The notes under the pieces: generated by a model | Databases searched by the model: none | What the model saw: only the letters and a program-made list of their open reading frames with translations | What the model was told of the DNA's origin: nothing | From: Burkholderiales bacterium | Lineage (GTDB): Bacteria > Pseudomonadota > Gammaproteobacteria > Burkholderiales > Ga0077523 | Direction of reading: 5' to 3' | Length of the DNA stretch: 64,000 nucleotides | NCBI GenBank assembly: GCA_046347985.1 | Contig: JAXMFE010000002.1 | Location: forward strand, 384,009 to 448,008 | Shown: piece after piece, positions 5,697 through 30,916 of the stretch | How positions within the stretch are numbered: the stretch's first letter is position 1 | How the letters are laid out: each line of letters begins with the position of its first letter | Position numbers and translations under genes: made by a program

Positions 5697-6986
5697 CTAG
5701 GGGTAGAGCCCGCGCTGCTCCAGCGCGCGGAGCACCCGCTCGCACGCCACCACGTAGGCAGCGGTCCGCAGCGGAATCCGCAGGGCGTCGTGGGTATCCC
5801 AGATCTGCTTGAACGCACCGGTCATGATGCGTTCGAGACGCCCGTCGATCTCCTCCTCGGTCCAGAAGAAGCTCGAGAAATCCTGCACCCATTCGAAATA
5901 GGACACGGTGACCCCGCCCGCGTTGGCGATGACGTCGGGCACGACCGTGATGCCGCGCTCGCCGAGGATGAGATCCGCTTCCGGAACGGTGGGACCGTTC
6001 GCCCCCTCCAGCACGACCCGCGTGCGCACCCGCCGTGCCCGATCGGCGGTGAGTTGCCCTTCGAGCGCTGCCAGGACGAGGAAGTCGGACCCGACCGCCC
6101 AGAAATCCTCGTCGGGAATCCGCTCGCCGGCCGCGAGCCGCGAGACGGTGCCGTGCCCGGACGACAGGGCCATCAACTCGCGCACGGGCAGTCCGTCGGG
6201 ATCGTGCGTCGTGCCGCTCGCGTCCTGCAGCGCGACGATGCGCGCACCGCTGGCGGCGAACATCTCGACCGCCGCCGACCCCACGTTGCCGAAACCCTGC
6301 ACGGCGACGCGCGCGCCTTCGAGCGGGATCCCGAGACGGCGCGCGGCTTCGCGACACACGACGAACACGCCGCGTCCGGTGGCTTTCACGCGCCCCAGCG
6401 ATCCGCCGAGTTCGATCGGCTTGCCGGTCACCACGCCGGAGGCCGTGCGCCCGACGTTCATCGAGTAGGTGTCCATCATCCAGGCCATGATCTGCGCATC
6501 GGTATTCACGTCCGGTGCGGGGATGTCCTTGTCCGGGCCGATGAGCATCCCGATCTCGCTCGTGTAGCGCCGGGTGACGCGCTCCAGTTCCTGCCGCGAC
6601 AGGTGCGCGGGGTCGAGCCGGATGCCGCCCTTCGCGCCGCCGAACGGCAGGTTGACCGCCGCGTTCTTGATGGTCATCCATGCCGCGAGCGCCATGACCT
6701 CCTCGAGCGTCACGTCCGGGTGATAGCGCACGCCGCCCTTGCCGGGTCCGCGCGCCAGGTTGTGCTGCACGCGATAGCCCTCGTAGTGCACCACCGTTCC
6801 GTCGTCGAGCTCGATCGGCACGTCCACGACCAGGCAGCGTTTCGGATGACGCAGCGTCTCGGCCAGCCGTGCGAGCGGACCGAGGTGAGGCAGCGCGCGA
6901 TCCACCTGCGCCAGGTAGGTCGACCAGGGCCCGCCGGATCGGGGACTCAGGTAGGACAACGCGGACGGGGGCGGACGGACATCCAT
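5697..6986 (-). CDS. gdhA: glutamate dehydrogenase (Glu/Leu/Phe/Val dehydrogenase family)
   Basis: Catalytic-Lys region FGGAKGGIR and Rossmann motif [11 protein letters not shown] are present. ATG at 6986 has GGAG 7 nt upstream. The track start at 7013 is a GTG 9 codons further up. Confidence 0.9.
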
Positions 6987-20381: not shown

Positions 20382-21167
20382 ATGGATGCTCAGGTAGCGC
20401 GGCGCGCAGGCGAGTTCCTCTGGACGGCCTGGCAGGCCCGCGAGGTGGTCGAGGCGCTGCCGGCGGAGCTTCGCCCTCGAACCGATGCCGACGGCTTCGC
20501 CATCCAGCGGGCCATCAACGAGATCTCCGGCCAGGCGCGATTCGGCTGGAAGATCGCGGCCACCAGCGCGGCCGGCCAGCAGCACATCGGCGTGTCCGGG
20601 CCGCTCCCGGGAACGCTGCTGGCGGAGCGCGTGCGCCAGGCGCCCGCCACCTTCTCCCTCGACCGCAACGCGATGCGCGTGGCTGAAACCGAATTCGCCT
20701 TCCGGATGGGCCGCACGCTGGCGCCGCGAGCGCAGCCCTACGCTGTCGACGAAGTGCTGGATGCCGTCGCGGCCCTGCATCCCGCCATCGAGGTTCCCGA
20801 TTCGCGTTATCGCGACTTCGTCACAGCCGGCGGTCCCCAGATCATTGCGGACAACGCCTGTGCCTGCTGGTTCGCGCTCGGCGAAGCCACGACGGCGGAC
20901 TGGCGTTCGGTCGATCTGTCCAAGCATCCGGTCCGTGCCACGATCGGCGATCGGGTGGCGGGCGAAGGTACCGGCGCCAACGTCCTCGGTGACCCTCGGG
21001 TCGCGCTGACCTGGCTGGCCAACGCGCTCAGCCGTTTCGGCACGCCGCTTTCGGCGGGTGAGGTGGTCACCACGGGCACCTGCGTCGTCCCCGTGACGGT
21101 CCAGCCGGGCGAGACCGTCGTGGCCGATTTCGGCCCCTTCGGCCGGGTCGAGGTGTCGTTCGAATGA
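20382..21167 (+). CDS. 2-keto-4-pentenoate hydratase-like (FAH-fold hydratase/decarboxylase)
   Basis: 261 aa. MhpD/HpcG-like features include GWKIAATS and GEVVTTGT. Its stop overlaps the kinase start (ATGA at 21164-21167). Confidence 0.7.
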   Translation: MDAQVARRAGEFLWTAWQAREVVEALPAELRPRTDADGFAIQRAINEISGQARFGWKIAATSAAGQQHIGVSGPLPGTLLAERVRQAPATFSLDRNAMRVAETEFAFRMGRTLAPRAQPYAVDEVLDAVAALHPAIEVPDSRYRDFVTAGGPQIIADNACACWFALGEATTADWRSVDLSKHPVRATIGDRVAGEGTGANVLGDPRVALTWLANALSRFGTPLSAGEVVTTGTCVVPVTVQPGETVVADFGPFGRVEVSFE

Positions 21168-22666
21168 GCAACGGGGGGGAGCAGGCGATGCCGATGGGAC
21201 GCCCGCACAAGTGGCCGACCTACTACCCCCGTTCGTTCGTCAAGCTGATCGTCGTCGGGTTCATCCTGGTCGCCCTGCCGCTGATCCTCGCCATCGCCAA
21301 CAATGCCCTGTCGATCCATGACATCACCGAGCGCAGCCAGCGAACGGTGCACCAGGCGATGCTCGCCACGGAGTCGAGCCGCCTCCTGATCGAGCAGATC
21401 ACGGCGATGGAACGCAGCGTCCGGCAGACCAGCGCCCTGGGCGACACGTCGCTGCTCGAAAGCTACGCGCATGCGCGGGCGAAGTTCATCGAGAGCGCCG
21501 ACCGGATGCTCACCCTGCGCCTCGACGCCGAGCAGATGCGTCAGCTCACCCTGCTCCGCGATCGGGAAGCCAGACTTGCGGACGCGGTGCATGCCGCGGC
21601 TGCGGTGCCGGAAGCACTGGGCGCGCTCCTCAACGACTTCGAGGCGCTCGATACGCTCGCGCACTCGCTGTCCGATCTGGGCGCCGCGATCGTCGAACGC
21701 GAAGTCGCAGCACTGCAGTCCATGGCGGAAGGCGTCCAGCGGTTCGTGTTCTGGCAGCTGGTCGCCCTGGTGCCCGTGGCGCTGCTGCTCATCGTCGGCG
21801 CGATCATCCTGATCTCGCGGCCGATCCGGCAGATCGATGCCGCGATCCGCCGCCTCGGTGAAGGGCATTTCGACACGCGGGTCGAGGTGACCGGACCGCA
21901 GGACCTGCAGCATCTCGGGCGCCAGCTCGACTGGATGCGCCTCAAGCTCGTCGACCTGGAAGAGCAGAAACGCCTGTTCCTGCACCACGTGTCGCACGAG
22001 CTGAAGACGCCGCTGGCCGCCCTCAAGGAAGGCGCCGGACTGCTCCACGAACAACTGGTGGGGCCGCTGACGCCGAGCCAGAAGGAGGTCGCCCTGATCC
22101 TGAAGCAGAACACGCAGCGGCTGCAGGAGCTGATCGAACGCCTGCTCAACTATCACGCGGCGCAGTTCCAGCGGACGGCGGTCACCGTGAGCGAGGTCGC
22201 GCTGCCGGAACTCATCACGCGGATCGGGCGGCAGCACAAGCTGACGATGGCATCGAAGGGCCTACGCTTCCAGGTCGACTGTCCGCCCCTGTCCATCGAG
22301 GGCGACCGCGACAAGCTGGCCGCGATCCTGGGCAACCTGATTTCCAATGCCGTGAAGTACGCCCCCCGCGATGGCACGGTCGGCGTGAACGTGGCATCCG
22401 AGGCGGACATGGTCCGGATCGAGGTCACCGACGACGGTCCCGGCATTCCGTCGGACGAGCGCAGCCTCGTCTTCGAACCCTTCTACCACGGCACCACGCC
22501 GCACGATGGTTCGATGAAAGGCACCGGGCTCGGGCTCGCCATCGTGCGCGAATTCGTGCTGGCGCATCACGGCCGCATCGAGATCGCGCCCGACGACACC
22601 GGCACGCGGATGCGCGTCGAACTGCCGCGTCGTCAGACCCACCTGATCGAAGAGGCTGCAGCATGA
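21164..22666 (+). CDS. sensor histidine kinase, GlrK/QseE-like (2 TM, HAMP, HisKA, HATPase)
   Basis: H-box FLHHVSHELKTPLAAL, plus N and G boxes (NLISNAVKYAP, DDGPGI, GTGLGLAIV). It has two TM helices flanking a periplasmic segment. Confidence 0.85.
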   Translation: MSNGGEQAMPMGRPHKWPTYYPRSFVKLIVVGFILVALPLILAIANNALSIHDITERSQRTVHQAMLATESSRLLIEQITAMERSVRQTSALGDTSLLESYAHARAKFIESADRMLTLRLDAEQMRQLTLLRDREARLADAVHAAAAVPEALGALLNDFEALDTLAHSLSDLGAAIVEREVAALQSMAEGVQRFVFWQLVALVPVALLLIVGAIILISRPIRQIDAAIRRLGEGHFDTRVEVTGPQDLQHLGRQLDWMRLKLVDLEEQKRLFLHHVSHELKTPLAALKEGAGLLHEQLVGPLTPSQKEVALILKQNTQRLQELIERLLNYHAAQFQRTAVTVSEVALPELITRIGRQHKLTMASKGLRFQVDCPPLSIEGDRDKLAAILGNLISNAVKYAPRDGTVGVNVASEADMVRIEVTDDGPGIPSDERSLVFEPFYHGTTPHDGSMKGTGLGLAIVREFVLAHHGRIEIAPDDTGTRMRVELPRRQTHLIEEAAA

Positions 22667-22700
22667 ACACATCGGCCGGCGGCCCCAGGGAGACCGCCTC

Positions 22701-23327
22701 GTGACCGTCGTCGATCACCGACATTTTCGGCAGCGGGCGCGCGCCGGCGCGACGGCGCTGGCGGCCGCCGTCATACTGGCGGCATGCAAGCATCAGATCG
22801 CCCCGGTCGAGATGGAGGTACCGCCCGTCGAGGAACCGAAGGCGCAGGCCGCCGTCAAGCCCCCGACCTGCGAACCCAGGCGCATCGAAGTGCGAACCGA
22901 CGTCGACAACCTGATGTCCCTGTATGCAACGCTGCGCTCGATGACCGCGAACGCGCAGAAGCAGGAGTTCGAGACCGCGAAGCGCGAGTTCAACACGTAC
23001 GGGTCGGAGGTCTCGCGCCTGACCCTGGCGATGCTGTACCTTCTCCCGAGCGCGCCGTTCCGCAACGAGGCGCAGGCCGCGCAACTGCTGGAGCCCTACC
23101 AGCGGGAAAAAGGGGAGACGCGCGGCAAGAGCGAACTGCGCGGGTTCGGGCAGCTGCTCGCGAGCCAGATCGATGCGTGGCGCAGGAGCGAAGCCGTGGT
23201 CGCGGCCCAGAACGTCAAGTTGAAGGACGAACAGCGCAGGACCGAGGAACTGCAGCGAAAGCTCGATGCCCTGAAGGACGTCGAGCGCGCAATGATCCAG
23301 AAGGATCAAGGAGCCAAACCGAAATGA
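22701..23327 (+). CDS. lipoprotein in the QseG/YfhG position between kinase and regulator
   Basis: GTG start. Lipobox ILAAC. The C-terminal part is coiled-coil-like (KLKDEQRRTEELQRKLDALKDVERAM). Its stop overlaps the regulator start (ATGA). Confidence 0.6.
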   Translation: MTVVDHRHFRQRARAGATALAAAVILAACKHQIAPVEMEVPPVEEPKAQAAVKPPTCEPRRIEVRTDVDNLMSLYATLRSMTANAQKQEFETAKREFNTYGSEVSRLTLAMLYLLPSAPFRNEAQAAQLLEPYQREKGETRGKSELRGFGQLLASQIDAWRRSEAVVAAQNVKLKDEQRRTEELQRKLDALKDVERAMIQKDQGAKPK

Positions 23328-24682
23328 GCGAATCGACCGAACGAATCCTGGTGGTGGACGATGACGAGGATCTGCTGCGCCTCGTGTCGCTGCGACTCGG
23401 CGCCGCGGGCTTCGAGGTGACGGCGGCGCGCAGCGCCGAAGAAGCCCTCGCGCGGCTGTCGGCCGTGACGCCGCACGTACTCGTCACGGACCTCAAGATG
23501 GGCGCCATGGACGGCATGGCGCTGTTCGAGGAAGTCCGGCGCTCGCACCCGGCCCTGCCGGTGATCATTCTCACGGCCCACGGCTCGATCCCGGATGCCG
23601 TCGCCGCGATGCGCAAGGGCGTGTTCGACTATCTCACCAAGCCCTTCGACGGGCAGGAGCTGGTCGCCCTGATCGCGCGCGCCGCGAGACTCTCATCGAC
23701 GCCGGCGAAGACCGACGGCGACGATCAATGGCGGTCCGCCATCCTCACGCACAACGCGGAGTTCGAGGCGGTTCTCGCCCGCGCCAAGCTCGTCGCGGCC
23801 GGCGACGCCAGCGTGCTGATCCGCGGCGAGAGCGGCACGGGCAAGGAGCTGCTTGCGCAGGCCATCCATCGCGCCAGTCCGCGCCGCAACCGTCCGTTCA
23901 TGGCACTGAACTGCGGCGCCATTCCCGAGAATCTGCTCGAGTCGGAACTGTTCGGGCACACCCGCGGCGCCTTCACGGGCGCGGCCCGCGATCACGTCGG
24001 ACTGTTCCAGTCCGCCGAAGGCGGCACGGTCTTCCTGGACGAGATCGGCGACATGCCGCTGGCGCTCCAGGTGAAGCTCCTGCGCGTCCTGCAGGAGAAG
24101 ACGGTGCGTCCCGTGGGGGCGACCCGCCCGGTAGCGGTGGATGTCCGGATCGTCTCTGCAACCCACCGCGATCTCGAGGCCGGGATCCGCGAGGCACGCT
24201 TCCGCGAAGACCTGTACTACCGCCTCAACGTCGTGAGTTTCGTGTTGCCGCCGCTGCGGGAACGCCGTGAGGACATCACGCTGCTCGCGTCCCATTTCCT
24301 GTCGCAGCTGGCCCAGCGCTACGGCAAGACCGTGAATTCGTTCGGCGCCGACGCGCTCGCCTGCATGGTCGAATTCGACTGGCCCGGCAATGTGCGCGAA
24401 TTGCTGAACGTCGTCGAGCAGGCCGTTGCCCTGAGCACGGGACCCATCGTCAGCCTGTCACTCATCGAGAACGCGCTGCGCGGGCCGTCCACCGAACTCC
24501 AGCCCTTCGAGAAGGCCCGCGGCCAGTTCGAGCGCGACTACCTGGCGCGCCTGCTGAAGATGACGAACGGCAACGTGACGCACGCGGCGCGCCTCGCCAA
24601 GCGCAACCGCACCGAGTTCTACAAGCTGCTGCATCGACATCATCTGCAGCCCTCGCAGTTCAAGAGCACGACGCCGGCCTGA
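23324..24682 (+). CDS. sigma-54-dependent response regulator (GlrR/QseF/NtrC family)
   Basis: Track ORF trimmed to MSESTERILVVDDDEDLL. It has a receiver domain, the AAA+ motifs GESGTGKE and GAFTGA, and a C-terminal Fis-type HTH. Confidence 0.9.
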   Translation: MSESTERILVVDDDEDLLRLVSLRLGAAGFEVTAARSAEEALARLSAVTPHVLVTDLKMGAMDGMALFEEVRRSHPALPVIILTAHGSIPDAVAAMRKGVFDYLTKPFDGQELVALIARAARLSSTPAKTDGDDQWRSAILTHNAEFEAVLARAKLVAAGDASVLIRGESGTGKELLAQAIHRASPRRNRPFMALNCGAIPENLLESELFGHTRGAFTGAARDHVGLFQSAEGGTVFLDEIGDMPLALQVKLLRVLQEKTVRPVGATRPVAVDVRIVSATHRDLEAGIREARFREDLYYRLNVVSFVLPPLRERREDITLLASHFLSQLAQRYGKTVNSFGADALACMVEFDWPGNVRELLNVVEQAVALSTGPIVSLSLIENALRGPSTELQPFEKARGQFERDYLARLLKMTNGNVTHAARLAKRNRTEFYKLLHRHHLQPSQFKSTTPA

Positions 24683-24850: not shown

Positions 24851-25240
24851 ATGCGCTTCCGCTTTCGCCGTGTCGTGACCGGCGTGCTCGTGCCCGCCGT
24901 TGTCGCCCTGTCCACCGCGGGACCGACCCGCGCTGCCATGATCGACACCCCGACGGCTTCCGGCCCGCCGACGACCGACGGCATCCCTGCCTCGCTCGCG
25001 CCGATGGTGGATCGCGACGTCGTCCGCACCCGCCTGATCGAGGCCGGCCTGCCCGCCGACGAAGCCGCGGCGCGTGCAGCCGCCTTGACCGCATCGGAAC
25101 TGGCATCGCTCGGAAGACTCGAATCGCAGCCAGCCGGGCGCGGCATCGTGGGCATCGCGGTGTTCGTGTTCGCCGTCCTGTTCATGACCGACGTGCTCGG
25201 CTACACGAAGATCTTCCCGTTCACGCGGACGCCGCGCTAG
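24851..25240 (+). CDS. PA2779-like small envelope protein, copy 1 (signal peptide, helical domain, C-terminal TM anchor)
   Basis: Internal ATG at 24851 has AGGAA upstream. 129 aa. It shares the motif GL.xDEA.AR.A.L...EL...PAG..., a TM helix and the tail TDVLGYTKIFPFTR with the next gene. Confidence 0.7.
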   Translation: MRFRFRRVVTGVLVPAVVALSTAGPTRAAMIDTPTASGPPTTDGIPASLAPMVDRDVVRTRLIEAGLPADEAAARAAALTASELASLGRLESQPAGRGIVGIAVFVFAVLFMTDVLGYTKIFPFTRTPR

Positions 25241-25286
25241 CGACGCGGGTGCGTCGCGTCATCGAAACTCACGGAGACTCCAACCC

Positions 25287-25697
25287 ATGAACATCCCCCT
25301 TCGCCGCTGGATCGCCCTCGCACTGGTGTGCACGATGTCGCATCTGACCATCGTCACCGCCGCCCAGGCCGCCTTGGTCGGCACCGAATCCGCCCGGACC
25401 TCGAGCCGCCCGTCGGCCGATGCGCGAATCCGCGTGGAAGCCTTCTTCGCCCGCACCGATGTCGCCGATCAACTGGCCCGTCTCGGTCTCTCCACGGACG
25501 AAGCCCGGGCGCGCGTCGCGACGCTGTCCGACGACGAGTTGTCGAAGGTCGCGGATCGCCTCGACCAGATGCCCGCGGGCGGCGACGCCCTCGGGACGCT
25601 CGTCGGCGCTGCCGTGCTCCTGTTCATCATCCTGCTCGTCACGGACATCCTCGGCCTCACGAAGGTGTTCTCGTTCACGCGGCCGATCCACCGATAG
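25287..25697 (+). CDS. PA2779-like small envelope protein, copy 2 (tandem paralog)
   Basis: 136 aa with GGAGA SD. Signal peptide ends ...TAAQA. It contains MPAGGDALG, a TM helix and the tail TDILGLTKVFSFTR. Confidence 0.7.
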   Translation: MNIPLRRWIALALVCTMSHLTIVTAAQAALVGTESARTSSRPSADARIRVEAFFARTDVADQLARLGLSTDEARARVATLSDDELSKVADRLDQMPAGGDALGTLVGAAVLLFIILLVTDILGLTKVFSFTRPIHR

Positions 25698-25764
25698 GCA
25701 CGGACCCGTACCGGGGCACGTGATCGACCGAAGCGCGCCGGCGCCTTCCGGGGCAGCGCGCCGG

Positions 25765-26694
25765 ATGCGCGGCGCGGGCGTCGTGTTCGCCGCCGTGCTC
25801 CTGATCGCGGGCTGCGCGCGTTCCCCGGTGCTCGCGCCGGATCGCCTGCTGAACGTGCCGTCGGCGGCAGAGCTGACCGAGACCCCGTTCTTCCCCCAGG
25901 CCGAGAATCACTGCGGTCCGGCCGCGCTGGCCACTGCGCTTTCGGCGCGAGGGATGCCGGCCGACCCCGAACCGTTGGCCGCCAGCGTCTACCTGCCTGC
26001 ACGCAAGGGGAGCCTGCCGCTCGACATGCTCGGCGGCGCGAGGCGCGCCGGCGCCGTGACGCTGCGGCTGGAGCCCCGCCTCGAAACGATCATGAGCTAT
26101 GTCGCGGCGGGCTATCCGGTCATCGTGCTGCAGAATCTCGGGCTGCGCTGGTATCCCCTGTACATGTACGTCGTCGGCTACGACGTCGCCGCGAAGGAAG
26201 TCATCCTGCGCTCGGGCGACCAGGCGCGAACGACGCCGACGACCGCGACCTTCGATGCCACCTGGGCACGGTCCGGCCGCTGGGCGATGGCGGCCAAGCC
26301 GGGCGATGTGCCGGCCCCCGTGGATCGGGTGACCTACACGGACGCCGTACTGGCGCTCGAACGCGTCCGCCGCGTGCGGGAAGCGCGCAGCGCCTACCAG
26401 GCCGGACTGGCGCGATGGCCGGGCGACCTGACCCTGATCATGGGCGCGGGCAATACGGCCTACGCTCTCGGCGACGTGGATTCCGCGGAAAGCGCATTCC
26501 GGCAGGCGGCCGGGGACCATCCCGACTCGGATGCCGCCCTGAACAATCTGGCACATGTGCTGGCGCAACGCGGTGCGCTGGAAGAGGCCGCGACCGTGGC
26601 GCGCCGTGCCGTTGCGCTGGTGGGGCCGAACGCGAGCGTGGCCCGCGCGACGCTGGACGAGATCACGGCCCGCATGACGAAAGAGCCGCGGTGA
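25765..26694 (+). CDS. PA2778-like C39-type cysteine peptidase lipoprotein with C-terminal TPR repeats
   Basis: Start chosen at MRGAGVVFAAVLLIAGC (lipobox); an alternative GTG lies at 25720. Gln/Cys motif FFPQAENHCGPAALATAL. The C-terminus has TPR-like repeats. Confidence 0.7.
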   Translation: MRGAGVVFAAVLLIAGCARSPVLAPDRLLNVPSAAELTETPFFPQAENHCGPAALATALSARGMPADPEPLAASVYLPARKGSLPLDMLGGARRAGAVTLRLEPRLETIMSYVAAGYPVIVLQNLGLRWYPLYMYVVGYDVAAKEVILRSGDQARTTPTTATFDATWARSGRWAMAAKPGDVPAPVDRVTYTDAVLALERVRRVREARSAYQAGLARWPGDLTLIMGAGNTAYALGDVDSAESAFRQAAGDHPDSDAALNNLAHVLAQRGALEEAATVARRAVALVGPNASVARATLDEITARMTKEPR

Positions 26695-26815: not shown

Positions 26816-27313
26816 ATGGAAACTGCGCACGCCGGCGCCCCGAGCGCCGACGCCGCGGAGACGGTCTGCCGGAAGATCGCCTGGCGCATCGTCCCGCTCC
26901 TGTTCCTGCTGTACGTCATCGCCTGTCCCGACCGCGCGAACGTGCGCTGCGCCATGCGCCGGATGTCCGCGGCGCCGGGTTTCAGCGAAACGGTCAGCGG
27001 TCTCGCCGCGGGCCGGTTCTTGATCGGCAACGGTCTGCTCCGGATCCCGAGCAGTTTCGCCCTCGAGAAATTCGGCGCGCGCCTGCGGATCGCCCGCATC
27101 CCGCTGCTTGGGGGAATCCTCGCCGCGGTCTTCAGTCCGTTCGGCGCGCCCGGCGGCTGTGTGGGGCCTTCCCCGACGGCTCTCCTGCGAGGCTGGACCG
27201 GACCTCCGGTCCGAGCCCTCTACGGGTTGGTGCTGGTTTGCTTCGCTGCCATGGGGCGGGGACTCGTCGTGTCCCCTCCCGGGACGGGACACACTGCCGC
27301 GAACTCGCCATGA
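26816..27313 (+). pseudogene. degenerate N-terminal remnant of an ACS-type MFS transporter
   Basis: It aligns by eye with the intact MFS gene at 46223 (KIAWRIVPLLFLLYVIACPDRANV vs KVSWRLLPLIVAAYLMAYIDRTNV; ALEKFGARLRIARI vs LQRTSARLWIARI). Conserved motifs are corrupted, and the ORF ends after about 165 aa where the next gene starts. Confidence 0.5.
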
Positions 27314-27519
27314 AGCCGCTCTCGAACGATCGCTGCCCGCTATGCGGGGGCCCCAACGGCTGCGTTCCCGCCGCCACCGGTTCCTTCGAACAGCCTTGCT
27401 GGTGCACGACGATCCGGGTGGATCCGGCCGTTCTGCGCCGGATCCCGGAGGCCCGGCGAAACGTCGCGTGCCTGTGCCGGGCCTGCGCCGAGGCATCGGC
27501 GGCTCCCGACATGGCGTGA
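27310..27519 (+). CDS. cysteine-rich CWC family protein
   Basis: 69 aa from the ATG at 27310. Motifs CPLCGGPNGC...PCWC...CLCRAC. Confidence 0.7.
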   Translation: MKPLSNDRCPLCGGPNGCVPAATGSFEQPCWCTTIRVDPAVLRRIPEARRNVACLCRACAEASAAPDMA

Positions 27520-27756: not shown

Positions 27757-28239
27757 ATGTTCCAGGAAGACCTCTCCCGCAATTTCGGTTTCATCCTCAA
27801 CGACGTCGCCCGGCTCATGCGCACGACGTTCGATCGTCGCGTGCGCGCCCTCGGATTCACGCGCTCGCAGTGGTGGGTGCTCAACCACGTGTTCCGCAAC
27901 AACGGCGCCACCCAGTCGGAGCTGGCCGATGTCCTCGAGGTGGAAAAGGCCACGCTCGGGCGGCTGCTGGACCGGATGGAGCAGAAGCGCTGGATCCGCC
28001 GCGAGCCCGATGCCGCCGATCGCCGGGTGCGCCGCGTCTTCCTGACCGTGGAAGTCGAACCCGCCATCAAGGCCATGCGCGCCGCGGCCGCCGAACTCCG
28101 GCGCGAAGCGCTGACCGGCCTCACCGGGGAACAGCAGGAATCCTTCGTGGATGCGCTGCTCACCATCAAGAGCAATCTCGCCCGGCCCGATAGCGCTGCT
28201 GGGGCCCGCAACGGCCGAAAGACGGAACGCACGGCATGA
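27757..28239 (+). CDS. MarR family transcriptional regulator
   Basis: Winged-helix core GFTRSQWWVLNHV...TQSELADVLEVEKATLGRLLDRMEQKRWIRREPDAADRRV. Its stop overlaps the next start (ATGA). Confidence 0.9.
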   Translation: MFQEDLSRNFGFILNDVARLMRTTFDRRVRALGFTRSQWWVLNHVFRNNGATQSELADVLEVEKATLGRLLDRMEQKRWIRREPDAADRRVRRVFLTVEVEPAIKAMRAAAAELRREALTGLTGEQQESFVDALLTIKSNLARPDSAAGARNGRKTERTA

Positions 28240-29357
28240 TCCTGCGGTGGTTGAGAGCCTGGGCAACGTCGCGACGGGCATTGAGAGTTCTCCTCCTGGT
28301 GGTGATTCCGCTCGTGGGCGTGGCAGTGGGGATCCGCACCTATGCCCTGTCGGGCCGGTTCGTGGAGACCGAGAACGCCTACGTGAAGGCCGACATGGTC
28401 GCCGTGAGCAGCGAGGTGCCGGGTCCCGTCGCCGAGGTGCTGGTCAAGGATCACGAGCACGTGGCCGCCGGCGCCCTGCTCTTTCGCCTGACGCCGGCGC
28501 CCTACGAAGTCGCGGTGTCGAAGGCCCGCGCGCAGATGGAAGTGGTCCGCACCGACGTGCAGTCGTTGCGCGCCGAATACCGCGCGGCCCTGCGCGAGGC
28601 CGAGGAGACCGAGGAACAGATCGCGTTCCTCACCCGGCAGTTCGAGCGGCAGGAGAAGCTGCGCGAAAGCGGCATGAGCCGGGCGGATCAGTACGACGAG
28701 GCGCGCCACAATCTGGAACTCGCGCGGCGCCGGCTGGTGAGCGTGAAGGAGCGCACCAACCGCGTCATCGCCAGCCTCGCCGGCGATCCCGATCTGCCGG
28801 TGGAACGCTTCCCGCGCTACCTCGAAGCGAAAGCCGCACTCGACGCCGCCACCATCGAACTGGGCCGCACCACCGTTCGGGCGCCGGCCGCCGGGACGGT
28901 GAGCAACATGCGCCTGCAGGTGGGCGAGCACATCGACAAGGGCGTGGCGGTCTTCAGCATCATCAGCAGCCAGCCCGCGTGGATCGAGGCCAACTACAAG
29001 GAGACCCAGCTCACGTACATGCGGGTGGGTCAGCGGGCCCGCGTCACCGTGGATGCCTATCCGGAACTCGAATGGCCCGCCGTCGTGTCCTCGATCTCGC
29101 CCGCGACGGGTGCCGAGTTCGCCGTGCTGCCGCCCCAGAATGCCTCGGGCAACTGGGTCAAGGTCGTGCAGCGCGTCCCCGTGCGGATCGACGTGGAGCA
29201 ACCGCCGGGTCAACCGCCCCTGCGTGCCGGCATGACCGTGACCGTCACGGTGGATACCGGTCACAGCAACGGCCTGCCGCGATCCGTTCGCCGCCTGATC
29301 GAGGAAGGCTGGCTTCCCCGCTTCCTGCAGCCGTCCTCCGCGCTCGCCGGCAACTAG
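28236..29357 (+). CDS. emrA: HlyD/EmrA-type membrane fusion protein
   Basis: N-terminal TM helix, ETENAYVKADMVAVSSEVPG, a coiled-coil segment, and VRAPAAGTVSN...NWVKVVQRVPVRI. Confidence 0.85.
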   Translation: MILRWLRAWATSRRALRVLLLVVIPLVGVAVGIRTYALSGRFVETENAYVKADMVAVSSEVPGPVAEVLVKDHEHVAAGALLFRLTPAPYEVAVSKARAQMEVVRTDVQSLRAEYRAALREAEETEEQIAFLTRQFERQEKLRESGMSRADQYDEARHNLELARRRLVSVKERTNRVIASLAGDPDLPVERFPRYLEAKAALDAATIELGRTTVRAPAAGTVSNMRLQVGEHIDKGVAVFSIISSQPAWIEANYKETQLTYMRVGQRARVTVDAYPELEWPAVVSSISPATGAEFAVLPPQNASGNWVKVVQRVPVRIDVEQPPGQPPLRAGMTVTVTVDTGHSNGLPRSVRRLIEEGWLPRFLQPSSALAGN

Positions 29358-29386
29358 GGACGTTCGGACAAGGATCGCCCCCGCCC

Positions 29387-30916
29387 GTGTTTCAGGAGGC
29401 TCCGCGTCACCCGATCCTCGTCACTGCATCGGTGATGCTGGCGTCGCTGCTGTACTCGATCGACTGGACCATCGCGGCCGTCGCGCTGCCGCACATGCAG
29501 GGCACCTTTTCCGCGACGCAGGACCAGATCGGCTGGGTCATCACGTCCTACATCGTCGCTTCCGCCATCTCCATTCCGACGGCGGGCTGGCTCAGCACCC
29601 GGTTCGGCCGAAAGCGCGTCTTCGTGGCGGCACTGTCGGCGTTCACCGTGGCCTCGGTCTTCTGCGGTGCGGCGGAATCGCTCGCGGTGGAAGTGCCGGC
29701 CCGGGTGATCCAGGGCCTCGGCGGCGCGTTCCTGATCCCGTTGTCGCACGCGATCATCCTGGACAACTACCCGCCCGAACAGCACGCGAAGGCGATGGCG
29801 CTGTGGGGACTCGGGTCGGTCACGGGGTCGTTCATCGGCCCGACCCTCGGCGGCTACCTGACCGAATACCTGAGCTGGCACTACGTCTTCTACATCAACG
29901 TGCCGTTCGGTGTGCTCTCGCTGGTCGGCATCGTCCTGTTCGTGCCGGAGACGCGCCGCAATCCGTCGCACCCGCTCGACTGGACGGGATTCCTGACCCT
30001 GGCGCTCGCCATCGGATCGTTCCAGCTCATGCTCGATCGCGGTGGCCAGCTCGACTGGTTCGAATCGCCGGAGATCGTGATCGAAGCCTGCCTCTCGACG
30101 CTCGGCATGTACCTGTTCGTGGCGCACAGCATGACGAGCCGTGCGCCATTCCTCGACGTCAAGCTGATCGTCCAGCGGCACTTCTTCCTGGGCCTGTGCT
30201 TCGTGTTCCTGTACGGACTGCTGACGATCCCGCCGATCGTCCTCATGCCGCCGTTCCTGCAGGACATCCAGGGCTACCCGGTCGACACGATCGGCCTGCT
30301 CCAGGCGCCGCGCGGGCTCGGCATGATCGGCGCGATGATGCTGAGCGGGCGGCTGACCGAACGGCTCGATCCCCGTCTGATGATCGGTGCGGGGCTGCTT
30401 TGCCTCGCCTGGGCGGCCGCCGAGATGTCCACGTGGAATGCGGCGGTCGGCACGTGGCCGCTGGTCTGGACCAATCTGGTGCAAGGTATCGGCGGCGGCA
30501 TCATCATGGTCCCGATCCAGTCCATCGCCTTCCCCGGGGTACCGCCCGAACGCCGCACCGAGGCCGCCGCGGTCTTCAACCTCGTGCGCAGCATCGGCGC
30601 GAGCATCGGCGTGTCGACGGCCCTCGCCTTGTTCGTCCGGCAGAGCGGCGCGACGCGTTCACGGCTCGCGGAGCAGATCACGGACTACAACCAGGCCCTG
30701 CGTCTGGACGGACAGCACGGCGGCTGGAGTCTCCATACGCTGAAGGACATCGCGTCGCTCGATCGCATGGTGGACGTGGAGGCGGCCATGATCTCCTACA
30801 CGATGGATTTCCGGCTGCTTGCCTTCGCGGCCCTCGGCGGCCTCGTGTTCCTGCTGTTCGTCGGTCGGACCCGGCGGCCGGCGGGTGGCGCGATGGAGGC
30901 GACGGAGGCGGCCTGA
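29387..30916 (+). CDS. emrB: DHA2 (EmrB/QacA) family MFS efflux permease
   Basis: Track ORF trimmed to the in-frame GTG at 29387, after the emrA stop. Motifs LDWTIAAVALPHMQG and GWLSTRFGRKR. 14-TM-type length (509 aa). Confidence 0.85.
   Translation: MFQEAPRHPILVTASVMLASLLYSIDWTIAAVALPHMQGTFSATQDQIGWVITSYIVASAISIPTAGWLSTRFGRKRVFVAALSAFTVASVFCGAAESLAVEVPARVIQGLGGAFLIPLSHAIILDNYPPEQHAKAMALWGLGSVTGSFIGPTLGGYLTEYLSWHYVFYINVPFGVLSLVGIVLFVPETRRNPSHPLDWTGFLTLALAIGSFQLMLDRGGQLDWFESPEIVIEACLSTLGMYLFVAHSMTSRAPFLDVKLIVQRHFFLGLCFVFLYGLLTIPPIVLMPPFLQDIQGYPVDTIGLLQAPRGLGMIGAMMLSGRLTERLDPRLMIGAGLLCLAWAAAEMSTWNAAVGTWPLVWTNLVQGIGGGIIMVPIQSIAFPGVPPERRTEAAAVFNLVRSIGASIGVSTALALFVRQSGATRSRLAEQITDYNQALRLDGQHGGWSLHTLKDIASLDRMVDVEAAMISYTMDFRLLAFAALGGLVFLLFVGRTRRPAGGAMEATEAA

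Follow-up and report, generated by a model that had tools for sequence, protein, structure and literature searches.

A conserved two-gene module encoding a small membrane-anchored protein (PA2779 family) and a C39-type lipoprotein peptidase (PA2778 family) is best read as a substrate and its protease. We hold this view tentatively, at a little below even confidence. We studied the module in a 64,000-nt stretch of a Burkholderiales metagenome-assembled genome (MAG; contig JAXMFE010000002.1), referred to here as the window, in which two tandem small genes (copy 1 and copy 2) precede one peptidase gene (Table 1). Four lines of evidence argue for the small protein being the substrate: The two genes are coupled one to one across genomes; a Pro-Ala-Gly (P-A-G) loop in the small protein is near-invariant and persists when the rest of the C terminus is replaced; in structure models this motif sits in the single exposed nonhelical stretch of the protein; and the peptidase has a C39-type catalytic center, C39 enzymes being known to cut after pairs of small residues (Ala-Gly, Gly-Gly, or Gly-Ala) (PMC5557850).

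The pair is widespread. Relatives of the peptidase are encoded on at least 594 stretches of GTDB species-representative genomes, and the best 80 of these (peptidase-seeded loci), together with the window, made up the 81 loci compared here. Proteins were assigned to families by comparing NCBIfam and Pfam hidden Markov model (HMM) scores with the curated cut-offs (40 bits for NF033919, 27 bits for DUF6627, and 150 bits for NF033920). In 76 of the 80 peptidase-seeded loci, the gene immediately 5′ of the peptidase and in the same orientation belongs to the PA2779 family, often with an overlap of a few bases at the peptidase start, and the synteny on which an earlier interpretation of this DNA (the sequence-only reading) depended is thus conserved. 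The four misses are two contig edges and two deltaproteobacterial MAGs, the latter being the only true exceptions to the pairing. In both MAGs (L055 and L056, at ~5800–6930), the gene before an intact PA2778-family peptidase is glycerate-kinase-like, and the PA2779 family is absent from the 6 kb around it. In the reverse direction, a peptidase gene was located downstream in three out of three long contigs seeded with the small gene. The peptidase is frameshifted in two of these long-read contigs, where the gene is split over two or three frames (L088, 3544–4549, on a 760-kb contig; L089, 3620–4991, on a 451-kb contig). The splits are probably long-read indel errors and not pseudogenes, because a short-read assembly of the same organism as L089 (L090) has the gene intact.

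Clustering of the open reading frames (ORFs) within 6 kb of the pair revealed no third conserved neighbor at the 81 loci. Specifically, there was no conserved ATP-binding cassette (ABC) transporter, there were no conserved cell-wall or acceptor-related genes, and type VI secretion system (T6SS) genes were absent from the surroundings of all 80 peptidase-seeded loci. Loci carried one or two copies of the small gene, with tandem pairs being rare (four out of 81 loci, including the window). The tandem in L009 is a recent duplicate. A divergent copy-1 type is shared by the window, L001, and L089/L090; its members are 44%–47% identical to one another, and in them the helix directly follows the motif, which reads PAGR, PAGG, or PAGA. 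On the basis of these sequences, we classify the copy-1 type as old and divergent.

All three window proteins scored well above the NCBIfam cut-offs of the PA2779 and PA2778 families, as the sequence-only reading had anticipated. That reading had described two adjacent paralogs (129 and 136 amino acids) with one shared architecture, followed by a C39-type lipoprotein peptidase with TPR repeats; all of the motifs it named were recovered in place, among them the lipobox and the Gln/Cys signature of the peptidase. The two copies are 35% identical, align with the family over their full length, and keep its invariant residues (R, G, R, PAG, F, TD, G, T, and F). We classify copy 2 as a canonical PA2779-family member and copy 1 as a divergent paralog. 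An AGGA ribosome-binding site lies 9 nt 5′ of copy 1. A protein identical to copy 2 was observed in five other assemblies, and the NCBI records identical to the window proteins, which derive from a Burkholderiales MAG, already carry the PA2779 and PA2778 names. Judged by their scores and alignments, the window genes are plain members of two curated, functionally empty families.

To describe the small protein, we used alignments of 34 homologs, of 89 copies from the genome loci, and of 150 representatives sharing ≤50% identity, which were the best-scoring of 3634 small-protein clusters at 50% identity. These 150 representatives, to which the counts below refer, are single-domain proteins of 125–192 residues, none with an added domain. 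Signal peptides were assigned from a conserved A-x-A, without a dedicated signal-peptide predictor; A26 was present in 110 and A28 in 145 representatives. A twin-arginine translocation (Tat) signal was ruled out, since paired arginines are not conserved. The predicted mature N terminus is conserved (A-[LM]-[VI]-G-T-[ED]) and leads into a helical domain with three invariant residues (R55, G66, and R75) and a near-invariant D81-x-E83. The helical domain is followed by [IL]-D-x-L-P-A-G-x, then by a hydrophobic helix, and in most members by the tail T-D-I-L-G-x-T-[KD]-V-F-P-F, in which T118, D119, and T124 were present in 150 out of 150 representatives. Within the motif, the first three positions were conserved in 97%–99% of representatives (P in 146, A in 146, and G in 149), while the fourth was more permissive (G in 107, 71%; Q in 17, 11%; A in 16, 11%). 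The Gly-Gly-like PAG(G/R) motif proposed by the sequence-only reading is therefore conserved in the family alignment, but its invariant unit is P-A-G and not G-G.

An AlphaFold (AF2) model of the small protein (mean predicted local distance difference test [pLDDT] score of 72) has helices at residues 43–54, 57–65, 70–78, and 82–94, a loop at 95–98, and a further helix at 99–122. The P-A-G motif falls in the predicted loop, the sole nonhelical stretch between helix 82–94 and the membrane helix 99–122. This placement fits the earlier proposal that the motif sits at the periplasmic face of the anchor helix. The helix and tail are conserved even above the motif and do not look like a throw-away anchor. 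A Foldseek search of the model against the PDB gave no significant match (best E-value of 1.8), and a sequence profile against the PDB gave only a chance-level match, to the periplasmic region of RseA (E = 0.1).

A second type of C terminus (type B) was observed in 11 of the 80 loci. Here a hydrophobic stretch of ∼20 residues, rich in Trp and Tyr, comes after P-A-G-[GA], and one or two basic residues take the place of the TDILG tail. Type-B proteins still exceed the family cut-off and keep both the motif and the membrane helix, indicating that the combination of P-A-G and a following membrane helix forms the core shared across the family. Read from the sequence, the type-B layout of motif, membrane helix, and basic tail is that of a processed anchor signal. 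Both window copies are type A, with an extra conserved tail of 14–18 residues (TDILGxTKVFPF). We also noted that NF053819, a model of small Enterococcus LPXTG surface proteins that depend on sortase, matches one type-B protein (L038, 1627–1989) below its threshold (24.3 bits, cut-off 47; E = 3.4e-5), probably because both sides combine a signal peptide with a small domain and an anchor.

Residue conservation in the peptidase was scored in 201 family sequences and showed no variation at the lipobox Cys, Gln45, or Cys50. Three PDB entries matched a profile built from the N-terminal domain, namely 3ERV, a Bacillus anthracis C39-like peptidase (E = 4e-6), the double-glycine protease domain of LahT (6MPZ; E = 0.0055), and ComA (3K8U; E = 0.68), and the Gln, Cys, and His of the family align with ComA Q11, C17, and H96. 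All 19 N-terminal domains tested matched both PF13529 and PF03412. A Pfam scan of the peptidase returned only C39_2 and TPR families, with no peptidoglycan-binding domain. The AF2 model of the peptidase (mean pLDDT of 90.4) has seven TPR-type helices behind an alpha/beta domain; a Foldseek search of this full model against the PDB returned TPR proteins only and nothing on the catalytic domain. The protein is a lipoprotein without an inner-membrane retention signal, with Ala at position +2 after the lipobox Cys in 143 of the 171 members scored and a tether of ∼18 residues.

The peptidase allele of the window differs from its family by three clustered in-frame lesions. In the first (26155–26184), a 6-nt deletion and three substitutions turn WHYAV into YMY, giving PLYMYVVGYD in place of the family pattern P-x-W-H-Y-A-V-V-V-G-Y-D and creating the palindrome GTACATGTAC. 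The other two are a Leu-to-Pro change at 26237 and the deletion of a Val codon (3 nt) at ∼26292. Gln45 and Cys50 are thus present in the window peptidase and the catalytic His is replaced. This His was present in 199 of the 201 family members, the only exceptions being the window and its identical NCBI record. The window protein barely reaches the PF13529 cut-off (24.4 bits, cut-off 24) and has no PF03412 match, while a 72% identical intact homolog scores 51.1 bits for PF13529 and 22.5 bits for PF03412 (cut-off 22); the weak PF13529 score fits the loss of the His. The same locus was recovered with an intact gene in four independent assemblies of other samples (L081–L084; two from ENA and two from Logan). 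These are otherwise 99.5%–100% identical to the window, and in two of them the identity outside the lesions reaches 100%, over 4.1 and 5.7 kb. The intact product has 312 residues, and the NCBI protein cluster consists of one 309-residue His-less member and one 312-residue intact member. Metagenomes scanned with a pattern that fits either allele, His-less or intact, gave no match. As sequenced, the window peptidase is predicted to be inactive, and the allele is probably dead or misassembled; functional inference should for this reason use the intact 312-residue version.

In the mechanism that we propose, the PA2779-family protein would be exported by Sec, and its signal peptide removed after the A-x-A. 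A single C-terminal helix would then hold it in the inner membrane, with a four-helix domain of ∼65 residues in the periplasm. The PA2778-family lipoprotein, composed of a putative papain-fold C39-type domain (Gln/Cys/His) and a TPR domain, would recognize the helical domain, probably via the TPR surface together with the peptidase groove, and would cut in the Pro-Ala-Gly loop, which connects the membrane helix to the periplasmic helix before it. The scissile bond is most parsimoniously placed just after the Ala-Gly pair, because Ala and Gly, and not Gly-Gly, are invariant. Cleavage would yield a soluble periplasmic domain and a conserved membrane stub of ∼38 residues. In the clade of the window, the module comprises the old tandem pair of small genes and lies behind a histidine kinase and a sigma54 regulator. 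A precedent for such an enzyme is FapD, a C39 peptidase that is exported by Sec and has been proven active in the periplasm (PMC5557850).

Several observations weigh against cleavage of the small protein by its neighbor. The membrane helix and tail are conserved above the motif itself, which is not expected of a discarded anchor; their strict conservation suggests that the stub is probably functional in its own right or that the protein is to remain membrane-bound. Because a minority of members carry Gln or Arg at position 4, the motif does not qualify as a classical double-glycine site. In the two deltaproteobacterial MAGs, no small gene adjoins the peptidase, and the window module as sequenced could cut nothing, with its catalytic His gone. 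The third catalytic position is an invariant Arg-Ser-Gly in the family, as opposed to Arg-Asp-Pro in 3ERV. Localization is a further difficulty. In Escherichia coli, the +2 rule sends lipoproteins with Ala at +2 to the outer membrane, although the rule is not universal. By this rule, and given the short tether, the enzyme would be held at the outer membrane and could not reach a site at the surface of the inner one. Moreover, C39_2-type domains also occur as cell-wall hydrolases in phage endolysins, and 3ERV, the closest solved relative, has also been reported as a match of a mycobacteriophage endolysin cysteine-protease domain, making a cell-wall substrate possible. Finally, the literature we searched contains no report of cleavage of a PA2779-family protein. 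We found no experimental study of either family in that literature, where the families carry names only; passing mentions concern the pair as neighbors of bswR and a strongly expressed gene of the pair in Pseudomonas stutzeri.

In an alternative reading, the small protein would be a partner of the peptidase and not its substrate, acting as an inner-membrane regulator, an adaptor, or a pseudosubstrate inhibitor on the TPR domain or the active site, and the enzyme would have its true target elsewhere, for example, in peptidoglycan peptides or other envelope proteins. We consider this explanation credible and rather unlikely. A most strictly conserved membrane helix and tail befit a permanent membrane resident, Ala at +2 suggests an outer-membrane lipoprotein, and the link of 3ERV to a phage endolysin domain is in line with a cell-wall target. 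The arrangement resembles that of NlpI, a TPR lipoprotein that organizes the papain-fold hydrolase MepS, and TPR lipoproteins that scaffold envelope hydrolases are known (PMC11211486, PMC5686067). The enzyme can also be lost with the small gene kept, as in the His-less window allele and in Pseudomonas aeruginosa clone CHA, where PA2778 has lost its start codon. A pure adaptor, however, offers no obvious role for an invariant P-A-G loop, let alone for one that is retained even when the whole C terminus is replaced. The peptidase has no peptidoglycan-binding domain and no conserved cell-wall genes nearby, and its Gln, Cys, and His align best with C39 domains that cleave leader peptides.

In a sortase-like variant, the peptidase would form an acyl-enzyme at P-A-G and transfer the helical domain to an acceptor in the envelope (peptidoglycan, lipid, or protein). 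Papain-fold cysteine enzymes act by way of a thioester intermediate, which an amine can resolve, type-B C termini have the three-part layout of sorting signals, and one of them yielded the subthreshold match to a sortase-dependent family described above. That match is probably driven by composition, however, and known sorting enzymes serve many cargos, whereas here there is one dedicated cargo of 125–145 residues. With an enzyme that is not membrane-embedded and no acceptor-related gene in the vicinity, we regard such transfer as very improbable. A broader proposal would treat the P-A-G loop and membrane helix as a new Gram-negative anchor-processing signal, read by a periplasmic C39-type lipoprotein in place of a membrane-embedded sortase-like enzyme. 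The freed four-helix domain would be passed covalently to an envelope acceptor or would act as a periplasmic signal, sensed in this clade by the adjacent kinase and sigma54 regulator, and the conserved stub would have a separate function; taken as a whole, we think this improbable. The idea of a secreted antibacterial toxin with the neighboring gene as its immunity determinant, in a T6SS context, draws on the listing of PA2778 among putative enzymes upstream of genes that are insertion-depleted under active H1-T6SS (transposon-sequencing preprint 10.1101/733030, which did not follow up PA2778), and we give it next to no credence, treating it as ruled out by a lipoprotein signal peptide that implies Sec export to the producer's own periplasm and by the lack of T6SS neighbors, with no PADLOC or toxin-family match in its support.

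Table 1. Features of the module and its surroundings in the window (positions in nucleotides of the window)
Feature	Position	Strand	Basis
HAMP histidine kinase	21164–22666	+	Pfam
Upstream two-component module	21164–24682	+	Pfam domains
Lipoprotein-like 208-aa ORF (…AVILAAC…)	22701–23327	+	Overlaps regulator start by 4 nt
Sigma54-dependent response regulator	23324–24682	+	Pfam
Small protein copy 1, 129 aa	24851–25240	+	NF033919 77.6 bits (cut-off 40); DUF6627 66.3 bits (cut-off 27)
Copy 1 predicted signal peptide, aa 1–28	24851–24934	+	A-x-A
Copy 1 shared motif GL[PS]xDEAxARxAxLxxxEL	25046–25102	+	
Copy 1 PAGR	25130–25141	+	
Copy 1 membrane helix	~25142–25204	+	Predicted
Copy 1 tail TDVLGYTKIFPFTR	25187–25228	+	
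Small protein copy 2, 136 aa	25287–25697	+	NF033919 110.9 bits (cut-off 40); DUF6627 86.8 bits (cut-off 27)
Copy 2 predicted signal peptide, aa 1–28	25287–25370	+	A-x-A
Copy 2 shared motif GL[PS]xDEAxARxAxLxxxEL	25485–25541	+	
Copy 2 PAGG	25572–25583	+	
Copy 2 membrane helix	~25590–25658	+	Predicted
Copy 2 tail TDILGLTKVFSFTR	25641–25682	+	
PA2778-family C39-type peptidase fused to TPR repeats, 309 aa, ATG at 25765	25765–26694	+	NF033920 267.5 bits (cut-off 150)
Peptidase lipobox LIAGC	25801–25815	+	
Peptidase segment FFPQAENHCGPAAL	25888–25929	+	
Peptidase Gln45	25897–25899	+	
Peptidase Cys50	25912–25914	+	
Three in-frame peptidase lesions clustered within 135 nt	26155–26304	+	Alignment with L081–L084
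Peptidase TPR domain	~26320 to gene end	+	Pfam TPR matches
MarR regulator	27757–28239	+	
HlyD-type membrane fusion protein	28236–29357	+	
MFS permease	~29354–30916	+	

Upstream of copy 1, the window carries a two-component system (Table 1). Elsewhere, a kinase and regulator precede the small gene only in L001, L051, L073, and L089, and adjacency in only five lineages rules out the two-component system as a general partner of the pair. The gap between the regulator and copy 1 measures 38 nt in L001 and suggests co-transcription of the two genes. No sigma54 promoter was found in the window between 24683 and 24850 (TGGCAC-N5-TTGC, with three or fewer mismatches and the GG/GC core required), and scans for sigma70 promoters and terminators were uninformative. 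The 208-residue ORF between kinase and regulator scored below every NCBIfam and Pfam family cut-off; it has a 54% identical counterpart in L001, and a 158-residue gene without a Pfam match occupies the same position in L089. In L051 (4931–5485) and L073 (4885–5493), a different membrane protein of ∼185–200 residues, with the motif …YRVTVRMDDGS[YF]RTVSL…GDKVRVVEG…, replaces the copy-1 gene behind the kinase and regulator.

Downstream from the peptidase, a 165-residue ORF (26816–27313, + strand) has a weak, below-cut-off match to the N terminus of the major facilitator superfamily (MFS; 16.3 bits). It looks like a degraded transporter fragment and is called as a gene without a Pfam match in sibling assemblies. 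Next comes a small cysteine-rich CWC-family protein (27310–27519, + strand; PF14375, 53 bits), situated between the peptidase and a MarR/EmrAB-like operon. This EmrAB-like efflux operon (27757–30916, + strand) is unrelated to the pair. PADLOC, Rfam, and tRNA scans were empty.

The family names, the curated models, and the NCBI labels on the window genes were already known. To these our analysis adds P-A-G as the invariant core of the small protein, the two C-terminal types, the lack of a third partner, a two-component link confined to one clade, and a peptidase without its catalytic His in this MAG. The P. aeruginosa proteins PA2779 and PA2778 belong to the same pair of families. If the small protein is cut at the P-A-G loop, the PA2778 family would come second, after FapD, among periplasmic C39-type peptidases to which a role is assigned, and it would be the first for which both substrate and site are defined; the module would then offer a simple model of how release from the inner membrane is regulated.

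By HMM membership and gene order (small gene first, then peptidase), the window module matches the curated NF033919/NF033920/DUF6627 pair, from which it differs in its rare tandem of small genes and in its peptidase allele without the catalytic His. The C39 domains of ComA, LahT, and PCAT1 share a papain-like fold and aligned Gln, Cys, and His residues with the PA2778 family, and in both cases a site or candidate site of small residues follows a helix. Those domains are cytoplasmic, fused to ABC exporters, and remove an N-terminal leader at a GG site; here, the enzyme is a predicted periplasmic lipoprotein with a TPR domain, and the candidate site, P-A-G-x, lies near the C terminus, before a membrane helix. 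The PA2778-family peptidase is not fused to an ABC exporter, and no conserved one lies within 6 kb at the 81 loci.

FapD, of the Pseudomonas functional-amyloid fap operon, is likewise a C39-type peptidase; it is Sec-exported and encoded beside its presumed targets, for which GG/GA sites have been suggested (PMC5557850). It differs in having no lipobox and no TPR domain and in belonging to a six-gene amyloid secretion operon; no fap genes are present at the window locus. The LapG–LapA system shares the concept of a periplasmic cysteine protease that cuts a short small-residue motif (di-alanine) to free an anchored protein. LapG, however, is of a different papain-clan family (bacterial transglutaminase-like), a domain absent from the Pfam scan of the peptidase, and LapA is anchored in an outer-membrane pore and released via LapD and cyclic di-GMP, with none of those genes near the pair. 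The signals of sortases, exosortases, and rhombosortases have the three-part layout seen in the type-B members (11 loci). These systems handle many unrelated cargos, whereas here a soluble or lipid-tethered enzyme, not a polytopic one, faces one dedicated cargo, and type-A members, including both window copies, carry an extra, very highly conserved TDILGxTKVFPF tail. By analogy, the module resembles LapG-type release or a sortase-type anchor signal in concept, and would work most like a C39 leader peptidase that has moved to the periplasm, as FapD has.

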